From the NCBI GenBank assembly GCA_041658665.1, contig JBAZZR010000001.1, forward strand, positions 256,576 through 320,575: a stretch of 64,000 bases of DNA, written 5' to 3'. The translations under genes were made by a program, and so were the position numbers. The DNA comes from Patescibacteria group bacterium. GTDB taxonomy: Bacteria; Patescibacteriota; Patescibacteriia; Patescibacteriales; UBA12465. The stretch's first letter is position 1; every line of letters begins with the position of its first letter. The notes beneath the pieces were generated by a model. That model made no database searches and was not told the DNA's origin. It saw only the letters and a program-made list of their open reading frames with translations. Positions 3,401 to 47,903 of this stretch are shown here, piece after piece.

Positions 3401-3419
3401 CACTAGTATGATACTAGTG
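3401..3419. promoter_or_regulatory. perfect 19 bp palindrome upstream of the glycosyltransferase promoter
   Basis: CACTAGTAT-G-ATACTAGTG read directly. It lies in the 3252-3567 intergenic region. Confidence 0.3.
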
Positions 3420-3464
3420 AGCGAACGAGCCATTAAGTGTCGATATAATAAGCCGAAGATTAAG

Positions 3465-3522
3465 AAAAAATAAAAAACCCTATGCCTGTTAATCTTATAA
3501 AAAGATAAATCAAGGCATAGGG
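3465..3522 (-). terminator. rho-independent terminator of the 3568-5010 gene
   Basis: A 10 bp stem CCCTATGCCT/AGGCATAGGG (3478-3487 / 3513-3522), followed on the minus strand by a long T-run. Confidence 0.6.
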
Positions 3523-3567
3523 AAAAGTGATTGAGAAAGTGATCGGCTGATTTTTTAAAGAAAAAAA

Positions 3568-5010: not shown

Positions 5011-5202
5011 TTTGGACTCCGTTTATTGTTTTTTATTTTTAAAGTTCGTTTTCTATTGAGTTGATTATACCATATATACTGGTCATTTGTCAATGGTAGG
5101 CTAATATTAGTAATTATTTATTGACTTTAATTGTCTAAAAATTAAATTAGTTATATAATGTTAATAAGAAAAATATTAATTTTTAAATTAAAATTAAATA
5201 AT

Positions 5203-25317: not shown

Positions 25318-25344
25318 TAGACACGGAAACGTGTCTACTTTTTT
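25318..25344. terminator. bidirectional terminator between convergent genes
   Basis: TAGACACG-GAAA-CGTGTCTACTTTTTT, with an A-rich run on the other side. Confidence 0.65.
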
Positions 25345-25378: not shown

Positions 25379-27088
25379 TCACTGAAGCTGCTTAAACGAT
25401 ACAGTTGCGGCGCTTTGATTTGTTGTGCTAGAATTTCCCGGTATGCCAATCGCGGCCGAATTTCCGGCAGCCGCATTAACGCTTAAAAATGAATTTGTGG
25501 TAGTCGTTTCGATAATAACACTGCCGCTGACAGAGCCGTTCGGCGATTTACCAATCATCGTATAAGGAAGAGGCGCCATATCGGTAATCGTAGCACCAAA
25601 ATATAAGACAACGCCGCCATCTTCAGGGTATGTCATTTGATAATTTATTTCATAGCGCCCGATATTGGCCAAAGTAAAAATTGTGCCACTGGCTTCGAAT
25701 TGTGGGAATATAGCAGTTTCAGAAGTGATTCCTGGTGTTGATAAAACGGTTGTGGTGTAGGTAAATGGCTTACCGGCAGCGACTGTGGCTAAGGCTCCTA
25801 ATTGAACGTATTGAGCAGAAGATATTACGCCGCTTGTTCCAGTATCGCCCTTATCACCTTTATCACCCTTATCTCCTTTTGGTCCGGCCACAATTGAATC
25901 AGCCCCCGTTGCGCCAGCCAGACCACTTGCGCCAGTCGCACCGATATCACCGGTTGCTCCAATACTGCCGGTTGCTCCAATACTGCCGGTTGCCCCGGCA
26001 GATCCAGCTGCACCCGTTGCCCCAACCGCACCAGTTGAACCTGTCGCACCAGTTGAACCAGCAAGACCACTTGCTCCAGTTGCTCCAATACTGCCGGTTG
26101 CTCCTGTCGCGCCTGTCGCGCCAGTTGGCCCGGTAAGACCAGTTATGCCTACAGATCCAGTCAGTCCGATTGGTCCGGTCACGCCGATTGGTCCTGTTAG
26201 TCCCGTTAATCCTGTGATTCCGGTTAAACCAATTTCCCCCGTATCTCCAATGGGTCCAATAATTCCAGTTAAACCGATAGTACCGGTCGCACCAGCTGGT
26301 CCAGTAAGACCAGTTATACCTACAGATCCAGTTAGTCCGATTGGTCCGGTTATTCCAATTGGTCCAGTAAGTCCTGTTAGTCCCGTTAATCCTGTTATTC
26401 CAGTTAAACCAATAGCTCCAGTATCTCCAATAGGCCCGATAGTACCAGTCAGTCCAATAGTACCCGCTGTACCCGTTGCACCGGTAGAGCCAATTGCTCC
26501 CGTAGAGCCAGTTGCCCCGGCAGATCCAGTCGCTCCCGTAGAACCGGTTGCACCTCTACTACCCGACCAACCAGGCATGCCCGTCGCGCCCGTTGCCCCT
26601 GTCGCGCCCGTTGCCCCTGTCGCGCCCGTCGCACCAATATTACCCGTTAGTTTGTTTATTATAAGTTTGTTTAATTTTTCTCTAGTTGTCTGATTAACTA
26701 TTCCTTCGGCCTTTAGGCCCTCTTTTATTTGAAAATGTTTAACGGCATTTTCCGTGAGCGATCCAAAATAACCAGTAACTAATCCTTCGGGGTAAATATC
26801 GGGGAATTGTTTAAGAAATTCTTGTAATTTTTTTACTTCTTCACCCTGTGCGCCTGTTTGTAGAGGTTTTGTAAACGGCGCGGCGGCTGGTACCAGTCGG
26901 GTTTCTAAAGTAACATTCTTTGATTCTAATTTTGGTTCCGACTTCGGCTCCGACTTCGGTTCTGATTTCTCAACTTTTTGCGGTAGCGGTGAAGTTATTA
27001 ATTCTAAACTTTCGCCTCCCGCATGAACCACAAAAGGTGAAAAAAACAAGGCTGCTAGAAGAATATTGAGAATCACTTTATTTTTCAT
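25379..27088 (-). CDS. secreted collagen-like (Gly-X-Thr) protein with peptidoglycan-binding domain and BclA/C1q-like C-terminal domain
   Basis: 569 aa. Contains a signal peptide, (SEPK)x3, and a PG_binding_1-like segment ([11 protein letters not shown]...[15 protein letters not shown]). By hand count there are about 82 uninterrupted G-X-Y triplets plus 6 more after a 4-residue break. The C-terminal approx 150 aa globular domain has a BclA-CTD-like pattern. Confidence 0.85.
26123..26473. repeat. internal tandem duplication (about 175 bp x2) within the collagen-like region
   Basis: The peptide blocks [60 protein letters not shown] and [57 protein letters not shown] are adjacent. The DNA is visibly near-identical. 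Confidence 0.7.
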
Positions 27089-27176
27089 ATTTTTATATAC
27101 GAATTTATTATACTACATTTTTTGATTTTTTAATAATTTGATCTCCATATTTACTAGCCTTTTTATACAAAGCCGT

Positions 27177-27206
27177 CCCCACTATGTCCACTCTCTCCGC
27201 AGATTG
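27177..27206 (+). repeat. cassette-junction element copy (tRNA-Ser 3'-end-like)
   Basis: CCCCACTATGTCCACTCTCTCCGCAGATTG. By hand alignment 27 of 29 positions are identical to the copy at 24624. Confidence 0.65.
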
Positions 27207-27288
27207 AACTTTAAAACGAGTGGTGCTAAGATTTAATTAAATGCCATCACTACAAAAATAAACATAATATTTTATTGTATTAAAAAAT

Positions 27289-30458: not shown

Positions 30459-30630
30459 TTAGTACTGGCGATTGAACCATTTTTATTAAATCTTGTTTTC
30501 TCTTAGGCTATTCTAAGAGACGAATTTATCACTCAGGAAGACTTTTAGCGCTCCTTAATATCTGTTTTAGTTATTTTATGTTATAATTTAAATATATATT
30601 TGACTAATTTAATAGATATTTTTGAAAAAT

Positions 30631-32313
30631 ATGGCTAAGCCACAGTTACTCGACTATATTAAAAAGTGTTCCGACCAAAATTTTAATAAAGATCAAATTA
30701 GTGCAGAACTGACAAAAGTTGGTTGGTCGGCCGCTGATATTAATGAGGCCTTTGCTGAGTTTTTATCAGTTCGACCAGACCGATCAGCAGTTCAATCAAC
30801 CGCCCAATCAATAGTTCGGCCGACGACTCAGCCGATAGTTCAACCGACGGTTCAACCGATAGCCCAACCGATGACGCAGTCGCCGGTCACCGAAAATTTA
30901 GTGAAGGCAGAAACTAAAGTCACGCCGCCGGGCAAAATAAAAAAGTCCTGGTCCTGGCCGACTATTAAATTTAATAGAACCTCGATTATAATAATTTCCG
31001 TTTTAGGTGTTTTGTTTTTAGGCGCGGGAGCCTTAGCTTATTTTTATTATTTTCCTTCGCCTCAAAGAGTCTTAAATAAGATGGTCGCTCGTCTAGGCAG
31101 CGTTCAATCCTTAACTTATTCTAGTGAAATAAAAGTAGAATATAAGATTAGCGAGTCGCTTATTAATAGTCAGGCTTATCTGGATATAATTGACAAAAAT
31201 TCGACCAGCTCTCTTTTCGGCGCTTCTTTTAGCGGTCCGGACGCCTCGAAAAATATTCATGAACTTACTCTTAATTTAATTGGCCAAACTGATTTTCAGA
31301 CTAATCTAAAAAATTCCTTAATTTTTGAAGCGCGTTCCTCGGAGATAGCGGGCGGAGCGAAATTCGCTTTAGAGACGCGTTTGATTAATAATTGGGTATA
31401 TCTAAATTTAGATTTACCGAATTTAGGTTTTATTGACCCTAGTATTTTAAAAAATCAGTGGCTGAAATTAGAGACGGCGACTGATTTGAGTAAGCTAGCA
31501 GATGTTAACGAACCAGTGGTTAGTACGACAACGGATAATAAAAATAGTTTAGCGCAGTGGTTTGCCAGATCCGAACAACTGAAAGACGCTTTAATTGAGT
31601 CGGCGGCTTTTAAGCTTAATAGTGTTCTGGCGAGCGAACAAATAAATAATTCCGCTACTTATCATTATAGTTTTGCGGTTGATAAAACCGGTCTGGAAAC
31701 TTTTATTATTAAAGCTAATAAAATACTATTAGCTAAGGATTTAAACGACCAAGATATCGCCCCCATCAAAAAAAATATTGATCGAATCGACTTAGCGACC
31801 GGGGAGATTTGGATCGGCCAAACGGATTTTTTACCCTATAAAATATCTTTTAATTTTACCCTGAAAGATAAAGCGGATGATCCTATTAAGGTAGAAAAAA
31901 TAACTTTAGTTTTATCCGGTCAAAATTTTAACTCGCCGCTGACTGTTAAAGAACCGGAATATTCTAGAACTGTGGCGCAAATGATGCAAGAATTTTTAGA
32001 GCCGCTGCTCGCTAGTAGTATTAAAGAGACGGCTAGTTCAAGCGACGCCTCCTTAGCGACTAGTACGAATTTAGGCGAATTGTCTACTAGTTCGCCGGTT
32101 ATGTCTGACCAAAATATTGACTCTGATAGCGACGGTTTAACTGATTACCAGGAAGTTAATGTTTATCAAACCGATCCTCTAAATAGAGATAGCGATGGCG
32201 ACTCCTATTCGGACGGGGAAGAAGTTAAGAATGGGTATGATCCTAAAGGCCCGGGCAAGCTCGCTAGCAGTACGGTAATATTACTGGCGCCAAGTGTTCC
32301 TATTGACAGATAA
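30631..32313 (+). CDS. single-pass membrane protein with C-terminal thrombospondin type-3-like Ca-binding repeats
   Basis: ATG at 30631 (MAKPQLLDYIKK...). Contains TQPIVQPTVQPIAQP repeats, one TM (IIIISVLGVLFLGAGALAYFYYF) and a C-terminal DSDSDGLTDYQE...DPLNRDSDGDSYSDGEE. Confidence 0.55.
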   Translation: MAKPQLLDYIKKCSDQNFNKDQISAELTKVGWSAADINEAFAEFLSVRPDRSAVQSTAQSIVRPTTQPIVQPTVQPIAQPMTQSPVTENLVKAETKVTPPGKIKKSWSWPTIKFNRTSIIIISVLGVLFLGAGALAYFYYFPSPQRVLNKMVARLGSVQSLTYSSEIKVEYKISESLINSQAYLDIIDKNSTSSLFGASFSGPDASKNIHELTLNLIGQTDFQTNLKNSLIFEARSSEIAGGAKFALETRLINNWVYLNLDLPNLGFIDPSILKNQWLKLETATDLSKLADVNEPVVSTTTDNKNSLAQWFARSEQLKDALIESAAFKLNSVLASEQINNSATYHYSFAVDKTGLETFIIKANKILLAKDLNDQDIAPIKKNIDRIDLATGEIWIGQTDFLPYKISFNFTLKDKADDPIKVEKITLVLSGQNFNSPLTVKEPEYSRTVAQMMQEFLEPLLASSIKETASSSDASLATSTNLGELSTSSPVMSDQNIDSDSDGLTDYQEVNVYQTDPLNRDSDGDSYSDGEEVKNGYDPKGPGKLASSTVILLAPSVPIDR

Positions 32314-33405: not shown

Positions 33406-34215
33406 CTAAAATAAATCAACAAACATAGTTAGAACGTAAATAATGACGAGGGCGATTACCCATAAGAAAATTCCGAAGAACCATTCTTGGCTCGTACTTT
33501 TTTGGGAAAGTTCGGAGGCGACTATTTTATCTTTATCAAGTTTACGGACCAGGCGCGAGGAGGTTACTTTACTAGTAAATAGTTGGCTTTGCTTCTTAAA
33601 GTATTGCCAGATATTCTGGCCGTGATTTTTAACTAGCCAGTATATTAGCCAGCTGGCTAAGGCTAGAAGTAATAGAAAGCCAAGCTTGTGCGACCATTTT
33701 CTAATAATAGTAATTAAAACATTACCCGAAAAATATCCGAGTAGAGCGCTCGAGACGGCCCAGACGACAGCACCGCTTAAATTCCAAATTAAAAAAGTTT
33801 TTTGTTTCATTCTAGAGGCGCCGGCGATGAAGGGAACGACTGCTCGGGTCGCTCCAAAAAATCGTCCCCAGAGGATGCTTTTCGCTCCGTATTTTTCAAA
33901 AAAAGTTTCTCCTTTAGCGAGCGTTTCGTCTTTAATTAATTTTTTACTCGATAGCCAAGGCGCGCCCCAACGGCCTAAAGAAAAACTTAAATAATCGCCG
34001 ATAACCGCGCCGATCGTGGCAAAAATAATTATTTCTTCAATTTTAAAATAACCTTGCGCCGCTAAAAAGCCGCCGATTGATATTAGAGTGCCGCCGGGAA
34101 AGAAGGCACCGATAAAGGGAAAACATTCAACTAGAGCAATAAATAAAAATAGCCAGTTGCCTAGCCAGCTTAAGCGGCCAATAATAGTAAAAATAAAAGA
34201 CGGATTATTGTCCAT
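33406..34215 (-). CDS. DedA family membrane protein
   Basis: 269 aa, multi-TM, with the DedA/SNARE-associated pattern (FFEKYGAKSILWGRF...VVPFIAGASRM). Confidence 0.8.
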   Translation of the reverse strand: MDNNPSFIFTIIGRLSWLGNWLFLFIALVECFPFIGAFFPGGTLISIGGFLAAQGYFKIEEIIIFATIGAVIGDYLSFSLGRWGAPWLSSKKLIKDETLAKGETFFEKYGAKSILWGRFFGATRAVVPFIAGASRMKQKTFLIWNLSGAVVWAVSSALLGYFSGNVLITIIRKWSHKLGFLLLLALASWLIYWLVKNHGQNIWQYFKKQSQLFTSKVTSSRLVRKLDKDKIVASELSQKSTSQEWFFGIFLWVIALVIIYVLTMFVDLF

Positions 34216-34235
34216 ATTTATATTATAACAAATTT

Positions 34236-34985
34236 TTAGAAGTATTGTCTTATTTTACTAAGTAGGCGGCGGATGATAAACAGCGGTGGTAATTTAAAGT
34301 TGTTGATTCGCCAGGCTAGTTTAAGCTCGCGCCAACCGGCACGCCGTTGTTTTAAGTTACGGCCGCTCCGACCGCCGCTGCGCATACAAACCAGAATTTC
34401 CGGTAAATAAAAAGTCGATATTTTTTCTTTTTTTAGCAAACGGAGAATGAGTTCATAATCACCGGCGATTTTAAAATCCGGGCGGAAGGCGCCGTACTGT
34501 TGATAAACTTCCCGTCGGACGAATAAAGTCGGATGAGGAATCGTCCAGCCACTATTTAATTTTTGGGCGGCGTACTTACCGGCTCGCCAGAATCTGACTA
34601 TTTTTTTAGGATTATCTCGTTCAACAAATTCTAAATCGCCATAACAAGCCTGGCAGTCAGGATTCTCCTCAAAACAATGAACTACTTTTTTAAGAATTGA
34701 TTCGTCTTTATAAAAATCATCAGAATTTAAGATGCCGATAATGTCGCCCGTCGCTAACTTTATGCCTTTATTCATTGCCTCGTATAGTCCTTGATCAGGC
34801 TCGGAGAGGAGAGTAATGCCAATTTTAGCCGAGTAGGCGCGGATAATATCTAGAGTATTATCGCTCGAAGCGCCGTCAATAACAATATATTCTAATTCGA
34901 CCCCAGTTTGTTGGAGGAGACTATTAAGAGTATCGCCAATCGTGGCGCCGCTGTTATAAGTTGGGGTGATAATTGAAATTTTCAT
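34236..34985 (-). CDS. family 2 glycosyltransferase
   Basis: 249 aa. ISIITPTYNS...VIDGASSDNT...LNSDD is typical GT2. Confidence 0.85.
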   Translation of the reverse strand: MKISIITPTYNSGATIGDTLNSLLQQTGVELEYIVIDGASSDNTLDIIRAYSAKIGITLLSEPDQGLYEAMNKGIKLATGDIIGILNSDDFYKDESILKKVVHCFEENPDCQACYGDLEFVERDNPKKIVRFWRAGKYAAQKLNSGWTIPHPTLFVRREVYQQYGAFRPDFKIAGDYELILRLLKKEKISTFYLPEILVCMRSGGRSGRNLKQRRAGWRELKLAWRINNFKLPPLFIIRRLLSKIRQYF

Positions 34986-35003
34986 ATTAGACGAGCGCGT
35001 AGA

Positions 35004-36143
35004 TTAACTGAAGAATTCTTTAATTTTTTTGATGATATAGTCCTGTTCGGTCGTTTTTAAAAAAGGATAGCAAGGCAGGGACAATATTTCTTTTTGAAAG
35101 GCATCAGTTTTTTCTAAACGTAGATCAGGATATTGCGGAGCATAACAGGCTTGACGGTGAATGGCGGTTGGATAGTGGATTAAAGTTTCAATTCCTTGAG
35201 AATTTAAGTAGGTGCGCAGAGCGTCGCGTTTTTCGTTCTGGAGGCGGATGACGAACAGATGATAGGAATGGTTAGAAGAGAATTCGGGTAGAATTAAATC
35301 TTTGAGATTAGTTAATTCAGTAATATACTTCTGAGCGATTGTTTGGCGGGTTTTAATAAAATCAGCTAGTTTAGCTAATTTTAAATTTAGAAAAAGGCAT
35401 TGGAGGGCGTCCGCGCGATAATTATTGCCTGGGATTAAGTGTTGATAGCGGCCCTGTTGCCCGTAATTACGATAGACAGTTGCAAAGTCGCGGATTTTTT
35501 CGTCATTAGTGAGAATTAATCCGCCCTCCCCTAGAGCGCCTAAATTTTTAGTCGGATAAAAACTGAAAGCTTTAGTATTAATTACTCCGGCGCCCGTAAA
35601 ATTAGCGCCGTGCGCTTGGCAGGCGTCTTCAATAACGATGAGCTGATGTCGCGCGGCTAGGCGATTAATTTCGGCGAGATTGGCGATTTGTCCGAATAAA
35701 TGAACCGGTAAAATCGCGCGGGTTTTGTTAGTAATTAAAGCTTCGATTTTATTCTCATTAATTAAATAATTGTCTTTAATATCGCAAAATATTGGCCGGG
35801 CGCCGATATTAGAAATCGCTAAACTAGTGGCGACGGCGCTGTTGGCGACCGTGATAACTTTATCCCCCGGTTTTAGGCCGTGTGCTAAAAGAGCTACTTC
35901 GAGCGCCGCTAAGCCAGTGGAAACGGCTACGCCGTATTTATAACCGTTCGCCGCGGCGAAATTTTGTTCAAAGGTAGCGGTCGCGGAGCCGAGAATATAA
36001 ATTCCCGCTCGTCCGAATTTTTTAAAGGCCGCTAAAAAATCATTTTCAAAATAAGCCCATTCCCGAGTTAAATCCAAGAAGGGGACGTGCTTGGTCGGTG
36101 GGGTTGCTAGTTTATCGGTTAACAAATTTTTTAAAATCTTCAT
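35004..36143 (-). CDS. DegT/DnrJ/EryC1-type sugar aminotransferase
   Basis: 379 aa. VPFLDL..., the PLP-lysine region SFYPTKNLGALGEGG and IEDACQAHGA. Overlaps the upstream FdtA-like gene by 32 nt. Confidence 0.85.
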   Translation of the reverse strand: MKILKNLLTDKLATPPTKHVPFLDLTREWAYFENDFLAAFKKFGRAGIYILGSATATFEQNFAAANGYKYGVAVSTGLAALEVALLAHGLKPGDKVITVANSAVATSLAISNIGARPIFCDIKDNYLINENKIEALITNKTRAILPVHLFGQIANLAEINRLAARHQLIVIEDACQAHGANFTGAGVINTKAFSFYPTKNLGALGEGGLILTNDEKIRDFATVYRNYGQQGRYQHLIPGNNYRADALQCLFLNLKLAKLADFIKTRQTIAQKYITELTNLKDLILPEFSSNHSYHLFVIRLQNEKRDALRTYLNSQGIETLIHYPTAIHRQACYAPQYPDLRLEKTDAFQKEILSLPCYPFLKTTEQDYIIKKIKEFFS

Positions 36144-36555
36144 AATTTCTAAGATAATCGGACTCCTGATAATAATCGGCGGCGATAACTAAAATAACGC
36201 AATCAGCCGAAAAATTAGACATAGTATGCCAAAGAGCGGGGCCGAGCCGTAGACCATAATACGGGCTGTTTATTTTTAAACTCTGTTTAGTTTTTCCGTC
36301 ATCGAGATTAATGGTAAAAGAGCCGTTAAGACAAAAAATAATTTGTTCGAGTTTTTTATGAGCATGATGGCCCCGTTTTGCCTTTTTATTAAAAAGATGA
36401 TTAATAAAATAAAGTCGTTTAATCGCGAAGGGCACGTTTTTTAAAGCTTCAGCGATGACTAAATTACCGTCGGGAAAATCATCAAAAAACTGTAAAGTGA
36501 TGAGGCCGGAGTTCTTAACTTTTATTTTTGGTAATTTGATTTTTGGTTTATTCAT
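36112..36555 (-). CDS. WxcM/FdtA-like sugar 3,4-ketoisomerase (cupin)
   Basis: 147 aa. RGHHAHKKLEQIIFCLNGSF matches the FdtA-type RGxHAHK motif. Confidence 0.7.
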   Translation of the reverse strand: MNKPKIKLPKIKVKNSGLITLQFFDDFPDGNLVIAEALKNVPFAIKRLYFINHLFNKKAKRGHHAHKKLEQIIFCLNGSFTINLDDGKTKQSLKINSPYYGLRLGPALWHTMSNFSADCVILVIAADYYQESDYLRNYEDFKKFVNR

Positions 36556-37513
36556 ATTTTTTATGAGAAAAATAAAGGGCGACCGCTAATCTTTTAAGAA
36601 TTTGTTTAAATTTATCGAGTAGGCCTTCAGGAGAACGATAACCGTAGTTAAATTTCGCATCGACGATTTTAACTTGAGCGATTACTTGATCGAGCTTGGT
36701 CGTGTAGGGGCGATAAATTATTTTTTCAATAATAGGGTTGAGGCGGTAAAAAGAAGAATGGAGCTCATATTTTTGCGGCGCGATGATTCTTAGAGTATGA
36801 GTGTGGTAGAAAATTAAGGGCTGATTATCAATTAGAATTTGGCCGTTATTTTCTCGAATATGATAGCGGTTAGCGTTCCAAGGAGCGACGTTAGCGCCGG
36901 GATGTTTTAAGACATGAATGCCGGCGAAATCTTGAGGCCAAGTGTCTAAATACATCTGATCACCGAATTTTCCCTCCTCATGTCTATTATAGCACCATTT
37001 TAAACAAGCTTGGCTCCACTGCGCTAAAACCGCTTGTCCAATCTCGTTATTTTTAAAAATAATCAAGGCGACGTTATAAATACCGGATTTTTCTAAGTAT
37101 TTAAGGCGTTCCTCGTAGTTATGTCGAATAATTAAGACGGAATCGGAACCTAATTCGTCATAAATTGGCTGCGGCGAAGAATAGAAATAAATATCACTAT
37201 CAAGATAAGCTAAATCAGTTAATTCTGGTTGATTTTTTAATAGATAATTGGTAAAGACTGAGCCTAAGGTCCAGCAGTATTCACCGCGCGAACGATTAGC
37301 TTTTGCCGCTAGCAACTGAGTATCTTCAATATCGCTCAGTTTAATTAAAATAGTATTTTTTAAGGCTAATTTTTTTAATAAATCATAAGTTTCTGCGTCT
37401 AAGCAGAGAATATAGAGTTGAAAGTCGGGGCAGTAGCGGACAATAGAATCATGTAGGGCCAGCCCGCGGAAAGCATAATTTTTATCGAATAGGGTACAAA
37501 AATTATAAAGCAT
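36548..37513 (-). CDS. putative GT-A fold nucleotide-sugar transferase
   Basis: 321 aa. N-terminal FCTLFDKNY and a DxD-like LDSDIYF. The family was not resolved. Confidence 0.5.
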   Translation of the reverse strand: MLYNFCTLFDKNYAFRGLALHDSIVRYCPDFQLYILCLDAETYDLLKKLALKNTILIKLSDIEDTQLLAAKANRSRGEYCWTLGSVFTNYLLKNQPELTDLAYLDSDIYFYSSPQPIYDELGSDSVLIIRHNYEERLKYLEKSGIYNVALIIFKNNEIGQAVLAQWSQACLKWCYNRHEEGKFGDQMYLDTWPQDFAGIHVLKHPGANVAPWNANRYHIRENNGQILIDNQPLIFYHTHTLRIIAPQKYELHSSFYRLNPIIEKIIYRPYTTKLDQVIAQVKIVDAKFNYGYRSPEGLLDKFKQILKRLAVALYFSHKKYE

Positions 37514-37517
37514 AAGA

Positions 37518-38240
37518 TTATTTTTTAGCCGTTATGGCGTAGTCTAGAGTCAGCCAGGAGTTTCTAAAAATAAAATCTAAAATAATAAAAATAATTTGAA
37601 TCGGAAAACAGAGAATAAGCGCGCTTAAGAGTTTAAACGGTTTATTTTTTAAAAATAATCTTTCAAAAATAAAAGCGGCGATAAGTTGGCCACAGACCCG
37701 AAAGACGCCGCTCGTTTCTTCCAGTTTTTCAATAGTGAGACCGGACTTGGCAAAGATCCGTTTATGCTCGTAACGAGTGAAGCGGCGAAAATCGTTAGGG
37801 ATTTCGTGTTCGCTCCAAACCAGGGGCATAGTGAGAAAAACTTGACCGTTAGTTTTTAAAACTCGTCTGATTTCGCTCAGGAGTTTTTCGGGGTCCCCAG
37901 CGTGTTCTAAAACTTCAGTACAGATTACCGCGTCAAAATTATTATCCGGAAAGGGGATAGTGGTGCCGTTATAAAATTTATCGACTATTTTCGCTTGGTC
38001 AAAATGTCCGCCGCCAGCAATATCGATACCGATATATGTCGCCCCCGGAAATAAACTAGCGTAGGGCTTCGAACCGCAACCGACGTCTAGAATCGTTTGT
38101 GACGTAAAATCAGCGGCCGCAAATTTTTTTATTTTTTTAAGTAAACCGTAGCGGGCAATAAAATACGGATTAATTAATACGGAATACCAGGCCGGTCGGA
38201 AAAAATGTCGATCGATGATTTGTTTTATTTTAGTTGGCAT
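37518..38240 (-). CDS. class I SAM-dependent methyltransferase
   Basis: 240 aa with motif I ILDVGCGSKPY, plus C-terminal TM segments. Confidence 0.75.
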   Translation of the reverse strand: MPTKIKQIIDRHFFRPAWYSVLINPYFIARYGLLKKIKKFAAADFTSQTILDVGCGSKPYASLFPGATYIGIDIAGGGHFDQAKIVDKFYNGTTIPFPDNNFDAVICTEVLEHAGDPEKLLSEIRRVLKTNGQVFLTMPLVWSEHEIPNDFRRFTRYEHKRIFAKSGLTIEKLEETSGVFRVCGQLIAAFIFERLFLKNKPFKLLSALILCFPIQIIFIILDFIFRNSWLTLDYAITAKK

Positions 38241-38251
38241 AAAGACAATAA

Positions 38252-39175
38252 CTAAGCCCGGGCGCTAAAGATTTTTGTAAATATTTTGAGGTAGTATTTA
38301 CAATTGATAAAAAAGATAAGGAGTCTTAAGCGGGGGGAGCGGAAATATTCTATAATCGTTTTTTTAGCGGCGCTATTTTCTTCAATCGGAATGGGGCCGA
38401 TTTTAATGGGTTGGGTAGAAAGGAGTGTCTGAAAAACTTGGGTGCGTCCTGTATGGGTACCGCTGTTATCAAAACCAGCATTAGAAACTAAGGAGCGTCC
38501 GGGGTAAAGAGTTAGTTTATTTTTTAAGAAAGCGGTTGCATACCAACGAATGGCCCAAGAATTATTTAGACCTTTTAATTGTCCCTTAAGCATCTGGAGA
38601 TAAGGATAAGAACCGTCTAAGTCGAATTCATAGCCTAATTTTTCGGCTCGTAAGGCTGTTAATAACTTTTGACTATCGGTTTCGAGCAAGTCCCAGCCTC
38701 TTTTCCAGGTCGCCCAGCCCCAACAATCCGCCCCTCTTAAAAAAAAAGTTTCCGGCAGCGGGCGCTTAGTCGGATAGACATAGCCATGGATACTAATAAT
38801 TTTATCGTTCTCTGCGTAACGATCGAGGGCTTCGTTCAGGTATTTTAAGAAATAGGGCGCCGTAATTAAATCATCTTCTAAAACGATTATTTTAGTAAAC
38901 TGACGGATGATTTCGGTGACGCCCTTAATAATTGAATCAGCCAAACCGAGATTTTTTTCGCGTTCGATAATTTTAACGCTTTTAAAGCCGGTTACGGTTT
39001 TTAAATAGGTTCTGACTGCCTGGACACTAGCGAGGGACTTATCGTTCTTAGCACCATCAGAAAAAATAATTAAATCGCTCTCAGCGGCTGATTCATTCTT
39101 GGCTAGAGCGGCGAGAGTTTGTTGGGTATGCTCTAAGCGGTTATAAGTAAATAGCGCGATGGGAGCAAGAGACAT
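38252..39175 (-). CDS. putative GT-A fold glycosyltransferase
   Basis: The MSLAPIALFTYNR start at 39175 lies 4 nt after the wecB stop. The track start at 39229 would overlap wecB by 50 nt. VLEDDL is a DxD-like motif. Confidence 0.55.
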   Translation of the reverse strand: MSLAPIALFTYNRLEHTQQTLAALAKNESAAESDLIIFSDGAKNDKSLASVQAVRTYLKTVTGFKSVKIIEREKNLGLADSIIKGVTEIIRQFTKIIVLEDDLITAPYFLKYLNEALDRYAENDKIISIHGYVYPTKRPLPETFFLRGADCWGWATWKRGWDLLETDSQKLLTALRAEKLGYEFDLDGSYPYLQMLKGQLKGLNNSWAIRWYATAFLKNKLTLYPGRSLVSNAGFDNSGTHTGRTQVFQTLLSTQPIKIGPIPIEENSAAKKTIIEYFRSPRLRLLIFFINCKYYLKIFTKIFSARA

Positions 39176-39179
39176 AAAT

Positions 39180-40298
39180 TTAAGAATTTTTTTTGAGTAC
39201 TTTAATAATTCGTTCACAAGTTCGGCCATCTCCGTAAGGGTTCTTGATTTTTGCCATTTGTTGGTATTTTTTAGAATTATTAAGTAAGCTCAGGGTTTCT
39301 TGCACTATTTTTTTATAGTTAGCACCAACTAGTTTAGCCGTTCCGGCTTTTAAGCCCTCCGTTCGCTCCGTTACTTCTCGAGTGACAAGAATTGGTTTAT
39401 TAAGAGACGGCGCTTCTTCTTGAATACCGCCGGAGTCTGTAATAATTAAATAGGATTTTTTCATTAACCAAATGAGGTAAGGATATTCCAGAGGTTTGAT
39501 GAGATGGATATTTTCAGTATTACCTAAAATTTTGTAAACCGGTTCTTTAACTCGCGGATTGAGGTGGACGGGATAAACGATTTGGACGGGATAATTTTCC
39601 GCTAAATTTTTTAAGGCGCGGCAGATATTTTCGAGAGGCTTTCCGAAACTTTCTCGACGGTGTCCGGTCACTAAGATTATTTTTTTAGAATAATCTAAAA
39701 AATTAAAGAATTTTTGATACCGATCATTTTTCTTAGTCAGGTGAATTATTTTAAGCGCGTGGCGTAAGGCGTCGATGACGCTATTGCCTACTACCCAGAC
39801 ATTCTGTTTAATATTTTCTCGGCGTAAATTTTGACCGGCTAATTTAGTCGGGGCAAAATGGAAGTCCGCGAGTTGGCTGATCATCTTACGATTAATCTCT
39901 TCAGGAAAAGGCGAATATTTATTAAAACTACGGAGGCCGTCTTCGAGATAAGCGATTTTTATGCGGCGATAGAAAGCGGCGAGAGCGCCGACGAAAGCGG
40001 AAGTAGTATCCCCCTGGACGATTAAAATATCCGGATTGATCTCCTCTAAGATAGTATCCATATTTTTTAACGAGCTGGCGGTAAGATCGAACAGAAATTG
40101 ATTATTTTTCATCAGGTTTAAATCGAAGTCAGGTACGATTTTAAAAAAACTTAAAATCTGATCCAACATTTCTCGATGTTGGCCGGTCACGCAGACCTTA
40201 ACGTTAAAAAATCTTTTTTGTTTTTTCATCCTGATGATTAAGGGGGCTAGCTTAATCGCTTCCGGTCGAGTACCGAAAACAAAGAGAATAGTTTTCAT
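39180..40298 (-). CDS. wecB: UDP-N-acetylglucosamine 2-epimerase
   Basis: 372 aa. FGTRPEAIKLAP, VTGQHREML and TDSGGIQEEAPSL are diagnostic. Confidence 0.88.
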   Translation of the reverse strand: MKTILFVFGTRPEAIKLAPLIIRMKKQKRFFNVKVCVTGQHREMLDQILSFFKIVPDFDLNLMKNNQFLFDLTASSLKNMDTILEEINPDILIVQGDTTSAFVGALAAFYRRIKIAYLEDGLRSFNKYSPFPEEINRKMISQLADFHFAPTKLAGQNLRRENIKQNVWVVGNSVIDALRHALKIIHLTKKNDRYQKFFNFLDYSKKIILVTGHRRESFGKPLENICRALKNLAENYPVQIVYPVHLNPRVKEPVYKILGNTENIHLIKPLEYPYLIWLMKKSYLIITDSGGIQEEAPSLNKPILVTREVTERTEGLKAGTAKLVGANYKKIVQETLSLLNNSKKYQQMAKIKNPYGDGRTCERIIKVLKKNS

Positions 40299-40302
40299 AA
40301 AT

Positions 40303-41541
40303 TTATTTTTGGATATATCTTTGTTTAATTAAAGGCCATAACCAATTGAAAGGTCGAAAAAGCCCGGGGTAACGACGATATAATTTAGTGGCCCGATTAG
40401 ATCGCTGCGCTTCGTAATTAATTATCGCTTGTCGGGCGGAGTTTTTTTGGGCGGAATCGATTATTTTAAATTCTGGGAAAAGCTTCACTAGGGGTTGACT
40501 ATTAACTTGCCAATTAAGTTTTTCTTCGGCCGAGCGTCGCGCCTGCTTCTTATAATTAGATAAGCTAGCGATATTGTCAATATAAAATTGCATTTTTTCG
40601 GTTAAACTTTCTAAATTAGGATCACAGAGCGGCCAGTAATAGTTATCGGAGCGCGGCCGCCAACTGTCGATTTTTACTAATTGTCCATTATTTTCGTCGA
40701 TAAATTCGTTCATGGGCGGGTTATCGCTCGTGATTACCGGTAAGCCACAGGCTAGCGCTTCTGGTAGGGTTAAACCGATGCCGTCTAAGCGGGAAGGGTA
40801 CACATAAATATCGCCTAAATGATAAAGACCGGGCGCTGTCACCGTTCCTTGGTAAAATTTTAATTTTTGTTGGGCGATTAGTTCGGTTATTAAGTCAGTC
40901 AACTCAGGATAAGTTTTAGTTAAGTCAATTTGGGTGTGAATGAGTAATTGGGCCGGTCCCGTGATCTTGGCCCAAGCCTTAATAACTAAATCAGTCCCTT
41001 TTCTTTCCGGGCTGACGCCGGCGGAATGAAAGAACGTGACTAGTCCCGGATTAGCCGGGGCGGAACTATGTGGTTGAAAAATTTTTAAATCCGTCCCCCA
41101 GGGTATGTATACTGCTTGAGGATGCCAAGAAAAAACGCTCTGATGCCGTTTGGTATTGCAGATTAGAAAATCATAAATGGCGAAAAGAGGCACGGTTTCC
41201 GGTGTGTAGTAGTCAATATAAGAACCGGTTTTAACTTTCAAGTCTTGGCATAATAGGACCGGGTCCCACCACTGTTGTTCGTTGAAAAAGACCAGATCTA
41301 GTTTATTTTTTAGAATCCAGGTTTTAAAATCCGCTAAATCAATGGACATGGCGACGTGGAGAGGTATCTTTTTGCCCCAAGTAACTGTAGGATCGTCCCA
41401 ATATTTATCACCGATAGCATAATGTTCACCACCGCGGGCATAAATAAAAATTTCATGGTCAGTCTGCAGTGACTCGCGGTACTGGCGGGAGACATAAGCC
41501 GCGCCGCGTTCTTGCCAGGTTGTTACTATGCCAATTTTCAT
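40303..41541 (-). CDS. GT-B (family 4-like) glycosyltransferase
   Basis: 412 aa with a C-terminal EGIGLTLPEALACGLPVI-type EX7E region. Confidence 0.7.
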   Translation of the reverse strand: MKIGIVTTWQERGAAYVSRQYRESLQTDHEIFIYARGGEHYAIGDKYWDDPTVTWGKKIPLHVAMSIDLADFKTWILKNKLDLVFFNEQQWWDPVLLCQDLKVKTGSYIDYYTPETVPLFAIYDFLICNTKRHQSVFSWHPQAVYIPWGTDLKIFQPHSSAPANPGLVTFFHSAGVSPERKGTDLVIKAWAKITGPAQLLIHTQIDLTKTYPELTDLITELIAQQKLKFYQGTVTAPGLYHLGDIYVYPSRLDGIGLTLPEALACGLPVITSDNPPMNEFIDENNGQLVKIDSWRPRSDNYYWPLCDPNLESLTEKMQFYIDNIASLSNYKKQARRSAEEKLNWQVNSQPLVKLFPEFKIIDSAQKNSARQAIINYEAQRSNRATKLYRRYPGLFRPFNWLWPLIKQRYIQK

Positions 41542-41553
41542 AATTGAGGCTGG

Positions 41554-42366
41554 TTATTTTTTAGCGATTAGACTCTTAAAATCGTCTAAGATTTCGTAAA
41601 GAGTCGGCGGAAAATAACTTTTATCTTTATTTAGATCTAAAACTTTGATTTGAAAGTCGACTTGAGGGTCAAAGGGGTAGGTTTTACTCTCGACCGCCGC
41701 GGTTAAAATTTCGGTTTGGGCGAGAGATTGATAATCCTGTTGGTGGGCATACCCCTTTATTTTAGCAAGCATTTCGGGAATCGTTAAGCACCAGGAGAAA
41801 TGACAGCCCGTTATTTCGGGATAAATCCAACCGGCGTAACGCCACTGGCCGGGATAACGGAATTTATAATACCAGGCGCGGCAGACCGTTGGGGCAATGA
41901 ATTTATTATTAGCCCAGAGATAGTTAAGTCGGTAGTAAAATTGGTAGAGAGGTAATTGAATAGCTGGTCGCCAGAATTTAAGCTGAGCGATGAGCTGAGG
42001 ATATTTTTGACCAAAGATTATTTCATCCGCGTCCACAGAAAAGATTATATCATTATTAGCTAATTTAATTTGAGAGGCGAAATAACCCCGCATAATTTTT
42101 TCATTTTTATGAGCTTGCTGGCGGTTGTCTTGAGCCGGTTTAATAAAAGAAGCAGCCTCGACGCCTAAATAAATAATTTTGGCTTGTTCGCTCGCCGAAA
42201 ATTCCGAGTAGTAATTATTAAAAATTAATTCGCGGGTGGCACCAGTATGAGTTCGATTAAATTCGCAGATAATAAATTTATCGATATAAGGGAAAGCTTC
42301 CCGAATATTTAATTTTAGATATTTTATTTCCGCGGCGGCCGAAAAAATTGTCTTAAGATAAATCAT
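41554..42366 (-). CDS. hypothetical protein, possibly GT17-like glycosyltransferase
   Basis: 270 aa with a DxD-like SVDADEIIF. The assignment is tentative. Confidence 0.35.
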   Translation of the reverse strand: MIYLKTIFSAAAEIKYLKLNIREAFPYIDKFIICEFNRTHTGATRELIFNNYYSEFSASEQAKIIYLGVEAASFIKPAQDNRQQAHKNEKIMRGYFASQIKLANNDIIFSVDADEIIFGQKYPQLIAQLKFWRPAIQLPLYQFYYRLNYLWANNKFIAPTVCRAWYYKFRYPGQWRYAGWIYPEITGCHFSWCLTIPEMLAKIKGYAHQQDYQSLAQTEILTAAVESKTYPFDPQVDFQIKVLDLNKDKSYFPPTLYEILDDFKSLIAKK

Positions 42367-42375
42367 ATAATAATG

Positions 42376-43218
42376 TTAACAGGCGTGCCACAGGGAATAA
42401 TAAGGATTGTCGGTTTGACGCAATTTAACCCAAAAAGGATCGTTTTGCTCCGTCATATAATCAAGCCACTCTTGACTGTGAATGATTTTTTTAGGTTTGC
42501 CGATTACTCCTGCTAAGATAGCGAAAGTGCTGGGAGAGGAAATTAAAACATCACATTGCGATAGTTGATAAAAATCAATGATGGGTAAATTTAAATTATC
42601 GCTTTGGTAAAATTCTTGTTTATTATTTTGTAAAAAATGGCTTGTTTCTAAGTAGGCGGGGAAGTTCTGGTCATCAGTAAAAAGAACAAAAACTAGTTTT
42701 TGACCAGGGAAATTAGCCAGACAATATTCGATTGCTTTTTGATAATAGTTGAATTTTAAAGAAGCGCGAGCGTTCCAGGCGGCGAAATCAGTACCGCGGA
42801 AATGTAGGCCGATTACTAGTTTATTGGTGGTGATAAAGGTAAATTCTTTTTGATAGTTCGGTTTTATTTCTATGAAATTTTGGGGCGGAAAGAATAAATA
42901 GTCGAAAAAAACATTGCCGAGAAATGGTGGCTGGAGGATAATATTATAATTTTCCGCATTTTTTTCCGTGATTAATCGTAAAAGCTCGATTGGCTTTTGC
43001 CGACCGACTTGAGCGGCGGTTAAGGTAATTTTTTTCGTGAAAATTAAAGGGTAAAGACTCGGCCGCCGTTTTTGCTCCAGGCCGACAAAAAATGGCGCTT
43101 CGGGAAATTTTAAATGAAAATATTCCAGGCCGGTTTGAGCGGCGAGTTGTCTTAAAAAGTGATAATGGAAGAGCCGATTACCTAGGCGGCCAGAGGAAAG
43201 TTTAGTGATACCAATCAT
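42376..43218 (-). CDS. GT11-like alpha-1,2-fucosyltransferase
   Basis: Start at MIGITKLSSGRLGNRLFHY (GT11 motif GGLGNQMFQY-like). HFRGTDF and SSPSTFAILAG parallel GT11 motifs. The co-located gmd and fcl supply GDP-fucose. Confidence 0.6.
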   Translation of the reverse strand: MIGITKLSSGRLGNRLFHYHFLRQLAAQTGLEYFHLKFPEAPFFVGLEQKRRPSLYPLIFTKKITLTAAQVGRQKPIELLRLITEKNAENYNIILQPPFLGNVFFDYLFFPPQNFIEIKPNYQKEFTFITTNKLVIGLHFRGTDFAAWNARASLKFNYYQKAIEYCLANFPGQKLVFVLFTDDQNFPAYLETSHFLQNNKQEFYQSDNLNLPIIDFYQLSQCDVLISSPSTFAILAGVIGKPKKIIHSQEWLDYMTEQNDPFWVKLRQTDNPYYSLWHAC

Positions 43219-43916
43219 ATTTTTTTTAAAATAGCCCGGAAACAATATAATTGTTTATCTGGAGAATAGAGGGCGCGAGGCGGGAGAGTAAAGTCAACGG
43301 CCGCGGCAAAAGTCAAATTAAGGCGTTCAATAATTCTTTTAAAGTAGTAGAGGTTAATAGTTGGATAATCAAAAGTCAGGATAATCAAACCATTATCCTT
43401 TAAAACTCGGCGAAATTCTCGGAGAGAGTGTTCGATATTTCTGGGGATGAATTTATCAAAGCCAGGGTGGTCGTTAAAATAGGGATATTTATTCGGCCAG
43501 TCGTTGAGGTGCTCAAGCACGGAGAGACAATAAATTTTATCAAATTTTTTATTTTCGTAGGGCATTTTAGTTAAACTCGCTTTTTGGTAGACGATTTTTT
43601 GAAAATATTCCGGGGTCATTTTATTTAGACCGGTGGCGCCGAAGACTTCGAATATCTCCTTTTTTATTTCCCCTTCTTCGAGGATTCGTGGATCGTAGTC
43701 GAGCGCGTGAGTCTCCTGGCCATGATCCGCCAGATAAAACTTAAAGGGATGGCAAATACCACTAGCGGCATCTAAAGAAATATCTGTTTTTTCTATAAAT
43801 TTACTAGCCCAGATATATTCATAAAAACGACTCCACCAGGTCGGATGAAGGGGGAAAAAAAAATCGCTATTTTTTTCATCGTCAACTAAGAAAAAACGAG
43901 AAGTGTAATCGGACAT
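43215..43916 (-). CDS. putative SAM-dependent methyltransferase
   Basis: 233 aa. LDAASG..., the acidic loop LDYD and a VLEHL region. Weak but consistent with a class I MTase. Confidence 0.5.
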   Translation of the reverse strand: MSDYTSRFFLVDDEKNSDFFFPLHPTWWSRFYEYIWASKFIEKTDISLDAASGICHPFKFYLADHGQETHALDYDPRILEEGEIKKEIFEVFGATGLNKMTPEYFQKIVYQKASLTKMPYENKKFDKIYCLSVLEHLNDWPNKYPYFNDHPGFDKFIPRNIEHSLREFRRVLKDNGLIILTFDYPTINLYYFKRIIERLNLTFAAAVDFTLPPRALYSPDKQLYCFRAILKKI

Positions 43917-43917
43917 A

Positions 43918-44595: not shown

Positions 44596-44597
44596 AT

Positions 44598-45887: not shown

Positions 45888-45889
45888 GT

Positions 45890-47876: not shown

Positions 47877-47903
47877 AAATTAAAATTTAAGGCCTCTAAA
47901 TTT

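Follow-up and report, generated by a model that had tools for sequence, protein, structure and literature searches.

A collagen-like protein encoded in a Patescibacteria genome, putatively a wall-anchored surface fibre with a BclA/C1q-type tip

Main finding

A stretch of 64,000 nucleotides from the metagenome-assembled genome (MAG) of an ultra-small Patescibacteria (CPR) bacterium, hereafter the window, carries a single collagen gene, and its secreted product most likely forms a triple-helical fibre of ~75 nm, held in the cell's own wall via an N-terminal PG_binding_1 domain and bearing a BclA/C1q-type tip.

The gene and its locus

25379..27088, minus strand: gene of the collagen-like secreted protein, 569 aa (ORF list; ATG start; stop codon 25379-25381)
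25318..25337, no strand assigned: hairpin with T-runs on both strands, between convergent genes, a likely bidirectional terminator (consensus match only)
27089..27288, no strand assigned: divergent intergenic region of 200 nt, common to the gene and a NUDIX gene (sequence)

The gene is monocistronic and lies in a housekeeping part of the chromosome, its neighbours encoding LigA, GatA, a DsbA-like protein, NYN, two NUDIX proteins and an aminotransferase. On the minus strand a TATAAT box (27107-27112) precedes the ATG by 18 nt; it resembles the consensus and nothing more, and the promoter scan returned no minus-strand site. The identical protein has also been called on an ENA metagenome contig of 821,845 bp, whereas a look-up of exact-sequence clusters had no entry for it. 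Two plus-strand ORFs, 25765-26136 and 26145-26693, were rejected as genes, being shadow frames of the repeat.

The sequence-only reading had described the gene as an inverted cassette, and as the only cassette in inverted orientation. Neither statement could be upheld: other minus-strand genes occur at 2118-5010 and 33406-49226, the collagen gene being the only one between 5158 and 32868, and amid its housekeeping neighbours no flanking repeats, recombinase or mobile genes were found, the inverted repeats around it consisting only of short AT-rich chance matches.

Elsewhere in the window SecA is encoded at 61075-63828, and a glycosylation operon (33406-49226) lies 6 kb from the collagen gene. 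Rfam detected two tRNAs and nothing else in the whole window. No peptidoglycan synthesis genes were seen within these 64 kb and no spore genes were present in them; a cell wall in the source organism is assumed from CPR genomes generally. When 12 window neighbours were compared with 24 other loci carrying a homologous gene, none was found nearby and there was no synteny, and the sortase and Ice_binding neighbours known from relatives were absent from the window. The surroundings of the gene thus offer no hint of its function.

Signal peptide, linker and putative wall anchor

27020..27088, minus strand: signal peptide, aa 1-23 (MKNK, hydrophobic core and VHA, with GG after the cut), read from the sequence
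26873..27019, minus strand: disordered acidic/basic linker, aa 24-72 (sequence; AF2 pLDDT about 50)
26672..26848, minus strand: PG_binding_1, aa 81-139, three-helix bundle, presumed non-covalent wall anchor (Pfam)

All three N-terminal parts proposed in the sequence-only reading, a signal peptide, a (SEPK)x3 linker and a PG_binding_1-type domain, were borne out. By reading, the first 23 residues, followed by GG, are laid out in n, h and c regions like a Sec signal peptide, and orthologues keep this layout. The (SEPK)x3 repeat occupies aa 42-53 (nt 26930-26965), where TRF reports a period of 12 nt (26937-26959). In L020, the closest full-length relative, the linker is missing.

The anchor domain matched Pfam PG_binding_1 (PF01471) over profile positions 1-57 of 57 at 51.3 bits, against a cut-off of 23 (E 1.3e-13), and its profile matches peptidoglycan-binding domains in the PDB, including 1lbu (9.8e-10), phiKZ gp144, SleB and CtpB. 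AF2 modelled it as three helices with pLDDT above 90, and Foldseek placed the model with the N-terminal domain of SleB (TMt 0.86 at an rmsd of 1.8 A), CtpB, SleC and 1lbu at 30-36% identity. A point against the anchor reading is that PG_binding_1 can also be a pro-domain without wall binding, as in the MMPs, which stood low among the matches. The N-terminal domain is a putative peptidoglycan binder. The protein has no LPXTG or transmembrane tail, its C-terminus reading ...SFKQLQ.

The same start, a signal peptide, in some cases a coiled coil, and PG_binding_1, is also found in many small Patescibacteria proteins, which then run on into long stretches of low complexity, and PG_binding_1 has been named as a candidate anchor of fibrillar adhesins (PMC8286594).

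The collagen stalk

25898..26644, minus strand: main collagen-like region, aa 149-397, 83 unbroken Gly-X-Y triplets (sequence; Pfam Collagen)
26285..26464, minus strand: Ile/Leu-rich collagen module, long copy, 60 aa, aa 209-268 (repeat comparison)
26114..26284, minus strand: Ile/Leu-rich collagen module, short copy, 57 aa, aa 269-325 (repeat comparison)
25886..25897, minus strand: SIVA, four-residue break in the Gly-X-Y register, aa 398-401, a possible hinge below the head (sequence)
25823..25885, minus strand: second collagen run, aa 402-422, 7 triplets (sequence)

Pfam Collagen (PF01391) recognised the stalk with E 2.1e-38 and 130.3 bits, against a cut-off of 27.2. The long triplet region and its break had been described before at about 82 plus 6 triplets by hand count; region and break were confirmed, and the exact counts are 83 and 7. 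Threonine fills the Y position in 49 of the 83 main triplets (59% Gly-X-Thr) and isoleucine in 18, whereas proline is scarce (8/83 in X, 1/83 in Y) and the stalk is almost uncharged. Because of this low proline content and near absence of charge, the thermal stability of an unglycosylated stalk would be uncertain. A triple helix is the presumed fold, and with the collagen rise of 0.286 nm per residue the 249 residues of the main region would span ~71 nm if triple-helical.

Within the main region, two Ile/Leu-rich modules stand in direct repeat, with 85% nucleotide identity and one 9-nt indel between the long and the short copy. The tandem duplication reported earlier at 26123-26473 thus exists, with exact units at 26114-26464; that it is recent did not hold, given the 85% identity and the conservation of the module elsewhere. 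The long/short pair is also present in L003, L006, L007 and L008, orthologues carry 2-6 module copies, and the modules are absent from L020, L005, L013-L015 and others. Hydrophobic residues in the 57/60-aa modules fall on solvent-exposed X and Y positions.

Below the head, the SIVA break is kept as STVA in L020. The 21-residue run that follows contains three GDK triplets, compared with four in L020, and these charged Lys/Asp residues beside the head may act as a stabilising 'clamp'.

The head domain

25382..25822, minus strand: C-terminal head, aa 423-569, BclA_C/C1q/TNF-like jelly roll, presumed trimerisation and distal binding domain (AF2, Foldseek, profiles)

The head folds, as modelled, as a BclA/C1q/TNF jelly roll. 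The AF2 monomer model had pLDDT 80 and pTM 0.79, and its best PDB matches in Foldseek were F-BclA 9h38 (E 4e-6, TM 0.66/0.72) followed by BclA 1wck, 2z5w and 2r6q, this group as a whole spanning E 4e-6 to 1e-5 and TM 0.64-0.74. Adiponectin, C1q, CTRP5, CD40L and ExsFA came after BclA, together with TNF-family ligands. The earlier proposal of a TNF/C1q fold therefore agrees with the predicted structure. The proposed kinship with BclA stood at the level of fold and profile-profile comparison but not at that of the Pfam model: BclA_C (PF18573) scored the head at 17.6 bits (E 0.0035), below its cut-off of 38 bits, and on this sub-threshold score the filing of the head as a Pfam BclA_C member was rejected.

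Intermediates narrow this gap. Eleven of 26 homologues match BclA_C weakly (best E 1.4e-6), and the head profile, which gave 423 matches at E <= 1e-3, reaches distant proteins with BclA_C scores of 30-41 bits, of which one exceeds the cut-off. Alignment of the head with BclA_C-positive proteins by hhalign gave a probability of 99.2% and E 3.6e-19. Neither the head sequence nor the head profile matched any PDB chain, even at E <= 10, and therefore the kinship with BclA rests on fold comparison and intermediates; Pfam C1q likewise had no sequence-level match to the head. By analogy with these relatives, the head would form trimers.

The head by itself, mounted on different stalks, also occurs in Bacteroidota and Babeliales and on giant-virus contigs (47-78% identity), and identity is nearly equal within and between phyla, the giant-virus contigs included. 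Its presence in free-living-type Bacteroidota as well as in giant-virus contigs argues against a host recognition specific to CPR.

A conserved family with variable stalk length

Proteins of this architecture make up a conserved family in CPR lineages, and their stalk length is very variable. The architecture recurs in at least 13 other loci, comprising nine MAGs in the genome scan (L003-L008 and L013-L015, eight of them labelled as CPR lineages) and the metagenome loci L020, L022, L023 and L025. Of 13 sequences scanned with Pfam, counting the window protein, 9 had a confirmed PG_binding_1. The length variation expected from the repeat was found among orthologues, which have 19-144 triplets (16-124 nm), an about 8-fold range between species; L020, for example, has 53 triplets, against 90 here (83 + 7). 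Members of the family would trimerise, form a triple helix, bind peptidoglycan and be exposed at the surface. Literature searches on collagen-like proteins in Patescibacteria, CPR or Parcubacteria, and on BclA combined with a peptidoglycan-binding domain, returned nothing relevant.

Proposed assembly and function

We propose that the protein would be exported by Sec, with the signal peptide cut after VHA, and that three chains would then join through their C-terminal jelly-roll heads, as in BclA, C1q and TNF. The charged (GDK)3 triplets would set the chains in register and the helix would zip towards the N-terminus, giving a rod of ~75 nm with a possible hinge at SIVA. At the base, three PG_binding_1 bundles would hold the fibre non-covalently in the cell's own peptidoglycan, the linker giving slack and the head lying distal; Y-position threonines may carry O-glycans, as those of BclA do. 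In its most likely role the head would contact another surface, be it that of a particle or of a host or partner cell, and gain and loss of triplets and modules would tune the length of the fibre. Attachment to a host or between cells, as put forward in the sequence-only reading, is an inference.

The same molecule with the same anchor might instead have a structural role, many copies forming a dense, hair-like nap or sheath on a tiny cell, as BclA does on the exosporium, to serve as a spacer, a hydrophobic or hydrated barrier or a shield against grazers and phages, with the Ile/Leu modules packing helices laterally. This is possible, if clearly less probable than attachment: BclA, the closest structural relative, does form a nap, a thick sheath has been seen on a CPR cell by cryo-EM, the 57/60-aa modules are conserved across genomes with hydrophobic residues at exposed positions, and a head so conserved across phyla suits a self-assembly surface over diversifying host recognition. 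However, the modules are dispensable, being missing from L020, L005, L013-L015 and others, and a layer with a fixed architecture would not usually show an about 8-fold range of stalk length. A fibre of reversed polarity, in which PG_binding_1 grips the peptidoglycan of another bacterium, host or prey, or in which shed protein bridges cells, we hold to be improbable. Episymbiosis on walled hosts is common among CPR bacteria, the protein could conceivably be shed, having neither a covalent nor a membrane anchor, and orthologues often adjoin sortase and other surface proteins, which hints at a separate anchoring partner. Yet the head is without a recognisable anchoring motif as well, host peptidoglycan is usually masked by outer layers, and the same N-terminal module starts many unrelated small CPR surface proteins, which suits a generic self-anchor. 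To our knowledge, the jelly-roll head is distal in every characterised fibre of the BclA/C1q type.

A viral source for the gene, either as a phage or prophage tail-fibre gene or as a recently transferred viral gene, is the least probable. Phage and giant-virus proteins commonly combine a collagen stalk with a C1q-like head, and a viral source could account for the BFVD matches to a Solivirus protein (61% identity) and to many Caudovirales proteins, for the head on the IMG/VR contigs L018 and L019, and for the want of synteny between genomes. However, no phage-related Pfam families occur among the 42 neighbouring ORFs scanned and no phage genes within 64 kb, flanking repeats and an integrase are absent, neither a Sec signal peptide nor a wall-binding domain is characteristic of virion fibres, and at least 13 other loci, eight of them labelled as CPR lineages, have kept the architecture. 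We regard the gene product as probably a surface fibre of the Patescibacteria (Falkowbacteria-like) cell itself.

A separate proposal concerns the tip. The head module occurs at 47-78% identity in CPR bacteria, in Babeliales, which are amoeba endosymbionts, in Bacteroidota and in giant viruses of protists, and it might be a horizontally exchanged fibre-tip module, possibly with the same widespread ligand, such as a protist surface glycan or phagocytosis receptor. We consider this a long shot; were it true, a collagen fibre anchored in the wall would serve some CPR bacteria for uptake by, or attachment to, eukaryotic microbes and not bacterial hosts, and the PG_binding_1/coiled-coil module would be the general CPR mount for surface fibres, replacing sortase-LPXTG. 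The near-equal head identity within and between phyla offers a clear lead on the horizontal exchange of fibre tips.

The envelope of CPR/Patescibacteria and their contact with partners are largely unexplored, almost none having been cultured, and talk of their appendages is usually confined to type IV pili. The family offers a testable candidate, a rod of 16-124 nm for which both the wall anchor and the distal head are defined, conserved in many CPR classes and, like BclA, varying in length. With it, BclA/C1q-type fibres would extend past spores and viruses to vegetative cells in a remote radiation of bacteria. The Gly-Leu/Ile-Thr modules, hydrophobic and poor in proline, represent an unusual class of triple-helix sequence for biomaterials.

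Comparison with known systems

BclA, the glycoprotein of the exosporium nap of Bacillus anthracis and B. cereus (1wck, 2z5w; PF18573), resembles the protein in its Gly-X-Thr stalk with a polymorphic number of triplets, in its C-terminal jelly-roll head of C1q/TNF fold, and in having, as is presumed here, a proximal N-terminus and a distal head. It differs in that the two heads are only 14-18% identical in structural alignment, that its stalk is (GPT)n whereas the X positions here are rich in Ala, Leu, Ser and Ile, that its exosporium-targeting peptide binds BxpB/ExsFA where the present protein has a Sec signal peptide and PG_binding_1, and that the present protein belongs to a non-sporulating CPR bacterium. 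F-BclA, the tip fibrillum of the F-type endospore appendages (ENA) of Bacillus thuringiensis (9h38), the best Foldseek match of the head, likewise has a collagen-like stalk and a BclA-type distal head, but it is mounted on a pilus-like spore appendage by a dedicated anchor complex, whereas the protein described here would sit on peptidoglycan by a domain of its own.

Giant-virus collagen-like proteins (Solivirus A0A3G5AJ93, Sylvanvirus, Klosneuvirus; L018 and L019) carry the same head family at 43-70% identity after a Gly-X-Thr region, but have Cys-rich or other viral N-termini, without signal peptide or PG_binding_1. The context of L019 is viral, with ankyrin and RING-like neighbours, while the Solivirus and L018 sequences are possibly MAG contamination. 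In C1q, adiponectin, the CTRPs and the NC1 domains of collagens VIII-X a collagen stalk is also followed by a trimeric jelly roll (Foldseek E 6e-5 to 1e-3, TM 0.5-0.66), but these eukaryotic proteins are soluble or part of the matrix and have no wall anchor.

Scl1/Scl2 (SclA/SclB) of Streptococcus pyogenes and Lcl of Legionella are trimeric collagen-like surface adhesins with, as here, variable triplets. Scl has its globular trimerisation domain at the N-terminus, which is distal, and is anchored by LPXTG at the C-terminus, whereas here the polarity is reversed and the putative anchor is the non-covalent PG_binding_1. Membership in SclB, SclA or Lcl was considered and rejected, as the NCBIfam models match only the collagen region and far below their cut-offs (140.7 vs 325 and 125 vs 500 bits; for Scl1/Scl2, NF038329 and NF038330, 140.7 vs 325 and 116 vs 400). 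Reversed-polarity, non-covalent anchoring of a bacterial collagen is absent from the reviews searched.

SleB, SleC, CtpB, the Streptomyces Zn DD-peptidase 1lbu and phiKZ gp144 share the three-helix domain at one end of a secreted protein, at 30-36% identity; in these wall enzymes it targets an enzyme to the wall, whereas here it carries a non-enzymatic collagen fibre. The mount is most likely an undescribed way to carry a known kind of surface fibre, and not a new kind of system.

Architecture of the collagen protein

The collagen gene (25379-27088, minus strand) has an ATG start in the ORF list and encodes 569 aa; an identical protein was also called on an ENA metagenome contig, and the RNR beta subunit of the same contig clusters with Candidatus Falkowbacteria at an identity of at least 90%. 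The protein is laid out as follows:

aa 1-23, signal peptide read from the sequence (MKNK, a 17-residue hydrophobic core and VHA/GG)
aa 24-72, charged linker, including (SEPK)x3 at aa 42-53
aa 81-139, PG_binding_1 domain (the anchor)
aa 149-397, main stalk, 83 Gly-X-Y triplets without interruption
aa 398-401, four-residue break, SIVA
aa 402-422, second collagen run, 7 further triplets
aa 423-569, globular head

This is essentially the five-part anatomy of the sequence-only reading, whose hand count of 82 + 6 triplets becomes exactly 83 + 7. Judged from its residues, aa 1-23 would be a Sec-type signal peptide, in a layout common to the orthologues, and the linker is disordered in the AF2 prediction. 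In the 83-triplet stalk, X is occupied by Ala (29), Leu (15), Ser (13), Pro (8) and Ile (6), and Y by Thr (49), Ile (18) and Ala (7). Apart from the collagen region of this protein, no Gly-X-Y run of at least six triplets was found in the window when all frames were scanned. GC content is 48% in the collagen gene and 56% in the stalk versus 39% in the window, the gene being raised because of the Gly codons of the stalk. Two plus-strand ORFs opposite this region, 25765-26136 (123 aa) and 26145-26693 (182 aa), are not genes, their PVxPVx repeats being shadow frames of the Gly-X-Y periodicity.

Anchor and head domains

The collagen and anchor assignments made by eye were upheld by Pfam, with 130.3 bits for Collagen (cut-off 27.2) and 51.3 bits for PG_binding_1 (cut-off 23), the latter across the entire 57-position model. 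The profile of the N-terminal module matches PG-binding domains of solved wall enzymes (Streptomyces Zn DD-peptidase 1lbu, 9.8e-10), together with phiKZ gp144, SleB, CtpB and L,D-transpeptidases, and the structural matches of its AF2 model, a three-helix bundle with pLDDT >90, are the N-terminal domain of SleB (TMt 0.86, rmsd 1.8 A), CtpB, SleC and 1lbu, identity to the matched domains being 30-36%. The protein ends in ...SFKQLQ, and apart from PG_binding_1 neither an LPXTG-type nor any other anchoring signal was found in it. Many small Patescibacteria proteins (P0039-P0070) open with a signal peptide followed, in most cases, by a coiled coil and then by the same conserved PG_binding_1 subtype, beyond which they run into PAIPAxP (Pro/Ala-) or Thr-rich low-complexity extended regions, several of them being truncated at contig ends; this combination fits a generic surface-anchor module of the Patescibacteria radiation (CPR). 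The window protein has its (SEPK)3 linker where these small proteins have the coiled coil. A published list (PMC8286594) names PG_binding_1 as a candidate anchor for fibrillar adhesins.

The head had been likened to BclA and C1q. It has no match among PDB sequences, either as a single sequence or as a profile, and alone it scores 17.6 bits against the Pfam BclA_C cut-off of 38, so membership of that Pfam family is rejected; the likeness stands through the fold and through homology by way of intermediates. A model built with AF2 on 26 homologues is all-beta (pLDDT 80.3, pTM 0.79), and its best PDB matches are F-BclA (9h38) and B. anthracis BclA (2z5w, 2r6q, 1wck, 3tyj), at E 4e-6 to 3e-5 and TM 0.63-0.74, followed by adiponectin, CTRP5, C1q, collagen VIII NC1, CD40L, APRIL, TNF and ExsFA. 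BclA_C is matched by 11 of the 26 homologues (best E 1.4e-6). An exhaustive profile search over 1.84 billion representatives returned 423 proteins at E <= 1e-3, 47 of them at E <= 1e-30; six of ten scanned proteins of the weaker tier are recognised by BclA_C (30-41 bits), and hhalign joins the head to the BclA_C-positive proteins with 99.2% probability (E 3.6e-19, 128 columns). Because of three independent lines, the fold match, the BclA_C matches of the homologues and this profile-profile link, we place the head in the BclA_C/C1q-TNF jelly-roll superfamily, as a divergent branch. The most conserved stretch of the head family, within aa 538-562, largely overlaps the sole internal segment that the AF2 monomer cannot place (aa 543-558, 25415-25462, pLDDT <50); it may serve as a trimer interface, bind a ligand or carry glycans.

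Distribution of the family and stalk variation

When each GTDB species was sampled by one genome, the head turned up in 16 loci, and in nine of them all four parts are present: signal peptide, PG_binding_1, collagen and head. The nine MAGs are assigned to Gracilibacteria, Wolfebacteria, Falkowbacteria, Uhrbacteria, Parcubacteria, Nomurabacteria, Adlerbacteria, an unclassified 'bacterium' and one labelled Gammaproteobacteria; four additional metagenome loci show the same architecture. Pfam confirmed PG_binding_1 in 9 of 13 sequences scanned, the window protein counted. For both protein ends, many database entries are small pieces from short contigs; the repeat is probably a place where assemblies break, and counts of the family are probably too low.

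The suspected variation in stalk length was borne out among orthologues, from 19 triplets (Wolfebacteria) to 144 (Gracilibacteria). Collagen rises 0.286 nm per residue, and as triple helices the stalks would span about 16-124 nm, with about 77 nm for the window's 90 triplets. Locus L020, the closest full-length relative (head 88% identical), has in common with the window protein the signal peptide, the anchor, an S-x-V-A break and the GDK clamp, but differs in having 53 triplets, four GDK triplets instead of three, and neither the (SEPK)3 linker nor Ile/Leu-rich modules; close relatives therefore do differ in stalk length and module content. The copies of the Ile/Leu-rich module in the window, whose pattern includes (LTG), are:

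26285-26464, minus strand, long module copy (60 aa)
26114-26284, minus strand, short module copy (57 aa)

A tandem repeat is thus present as first described, but its supposed recency does not survive, since the copies are only 85% identical in DNA (with a single 9-nt indel) and the module is common to other genomes. The long/short pair also occurs in locus L008, and three to six copies occur in L003, L006 and L007. Module identity is 75-89% within and 64-79% between genomes, a pattern that fits an old array under concerted evolution, or local duplication that has recurred, and does not fit a recent duplication peculiar to the window genome. L020, L005 and L022, the relatives nearest to the window, lack the module, which suggests that modules are gained and lost or pass from one collagen gene to another. 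The hydrophobic X and Y residues of the module would be solvent-exposed on the triple helix, lateral packing being one possibility.

Beyond CPR, the head lies behind non-collagen stalks or up to 258 triplets in Bacteroidota (L009-L012, L016) and behind a different N-terminal domain in a Babeliales MAG (L017). On giant-virus and IMG/VR contigs it is 43-70% identical to the window's, behind collagen regions with Cys-rich viral N-termini: a 391-kb IMG/VR contig (L018) carries two collagen genes (gene at 3540-5477), a giant-virus MAG (L019, IMG/VR) has the head gene at 2809-3591 with ankyrin and RING-like neighbours, and BFVD holds a Solivirus protein (A0A3G5AJ93, 61% identity) and a Sylvanvirus protein (43%). 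Mean head identity is 74% between CPR heads, 74% between CPR and Babeliales, 67% between CPR and Bacteroidota and 60% between CPR and viral contigs. Head identity does not track taxonomy; horizontal exchange, an unusually strong constraint, or the two combined would account for this. As to the viral occurrences, either genes have moved between protist viruses and CPR or other bacteria, or the contigs are mis-binned, and some head-bearing MAGs may be mis-binned. The 'uncultured Gammaproteobacteria' MAG (L007, CAYRYG010000001.1) shows every part of the CPR-type architecture, its stalk having 104 triplets and the Ile/Leu modules, through either mis-binning or true cross-phylum transfer.

Genomic context

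The features near the gene that may bear on its expression and decoration are:

200 nt, upstream intergenic region of the collagen gene, divergent from a NUDIX gene
25318-25337, hairpin with T-runs on both strands, between the collagen gene and a convergent gene
33406-49226, minus strand, 16-kb surface polysaccharide/glycan synthesis operon

With its own upstream region and the hairpin, the collagen gene looks monocistronic. It had been called the only cassette in inverted orientation, a description that we abandon: its neighbours are tRNA-His, LigA, GatA, a DsbA-like protein, tRNA-Ser, an NYN protein, two NUDIX proteins and a class III aminotransferase, with HisRS, RNR, HolB, RseP and SecA farther off; the inverted repeats on either side amount to short AT-rich matches, neither a recombinase nor a phage gene was found, and other minus-strand genes occur at 2118-5010 and 33406-49226. 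None of the window's 12 neighbouring proteins lies beside the homologous gene in any of 24 other loci, and the gene is therefore not syntenic.

In relatives, a sortase gene (PF04203) adjoins the PG_binding-collagen-head gene in L004, L005, L008 and L020 (67-82 bits in three scanned, the fourth by tblastn only), and four distinct loci (L005/L021, L008, L022, L023) encode, close by, a surface protein of about 600 aa of the Ice_binding-like/DUF7507 type, which suggests a surface-protein island; neither occurs within the window's 64 kb. The window's glycan operon, 6 kb from the Gly-X-Thr collagen gene, encodes Bac_transf, GDP-mannose 4,6-dehydratase, a Wzx-like flippase, GT2 and GT4 glycosyltransferases, UDP-GlcNAc 2-epimerase and a DegT aminotransferase, and by analogy with BclA could possibly serve in glycosylation of the stalk Thr residues.

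Elsewhere in the window, a 563-aa protein with TSP3_bac (bacterial thrombospondin type 3) repeats (30622-32313, plus strand), about 3.5 kb from the collagen gene, is likely another calcium-binding surface protein. A 480-aa protein (3568-5010, minus strand) ends in a Por_Secre_tail (type IX secretion sorting; 45.9 bits, cut-off 27), typical of Bacteroidota and odd in a Patescibacteria genome. Two adjacent radical-SAM proteins at the window start (16-2007, plus strand) and an aromatic amino-acid ammonia-lyase (498 bits; 9104-10768, plus strand) immediately following HisRS are unusual metabolic genes in a reduced CPR genome.

Discussion

We think it fairly probable that the protein forms a wall-anchored fibre. 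It would be exported through Sec, and three chains would first associate through the C-terminal jelly roll, the way BclA, C1q and TNF do; Lys/Asp-rich triplets beside the head would register the chains and the helix would zip toward the N-terminus. Three PG_binding_1 bundles would fix the base in the producer's wall without covalent bonds, and the head would be displayed distally. We tentatively favour an adhesin over a structural nap.

The core of the sequence-only reading, a BclA-like collagen fibre with a PG-binding anchor, is retained, and its "cassette" and "recent" are dropped. A review of prokaryotic collagen-like proteins describes anchoring by LPXTG, exosporium and membrane, and never mentions PG-binding domains (PMC8968730); we found nothing relevant in the literature on collagen-like proteins in Patescibacteria, CPR or Parcubacteria. 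The proteins make up a conserved, previously undescribed CPR family of putative wall-anchored, BclA-like collagen fibres, a fibre kind that is itself already known. The window protein resembles BclA in stalk type, head fold, polarity and length polymorphism, but differs from it in anchor, cell type and Pfam membership; relative to Scl1/2, both its polarity and its anchoring chemistry are reversed.
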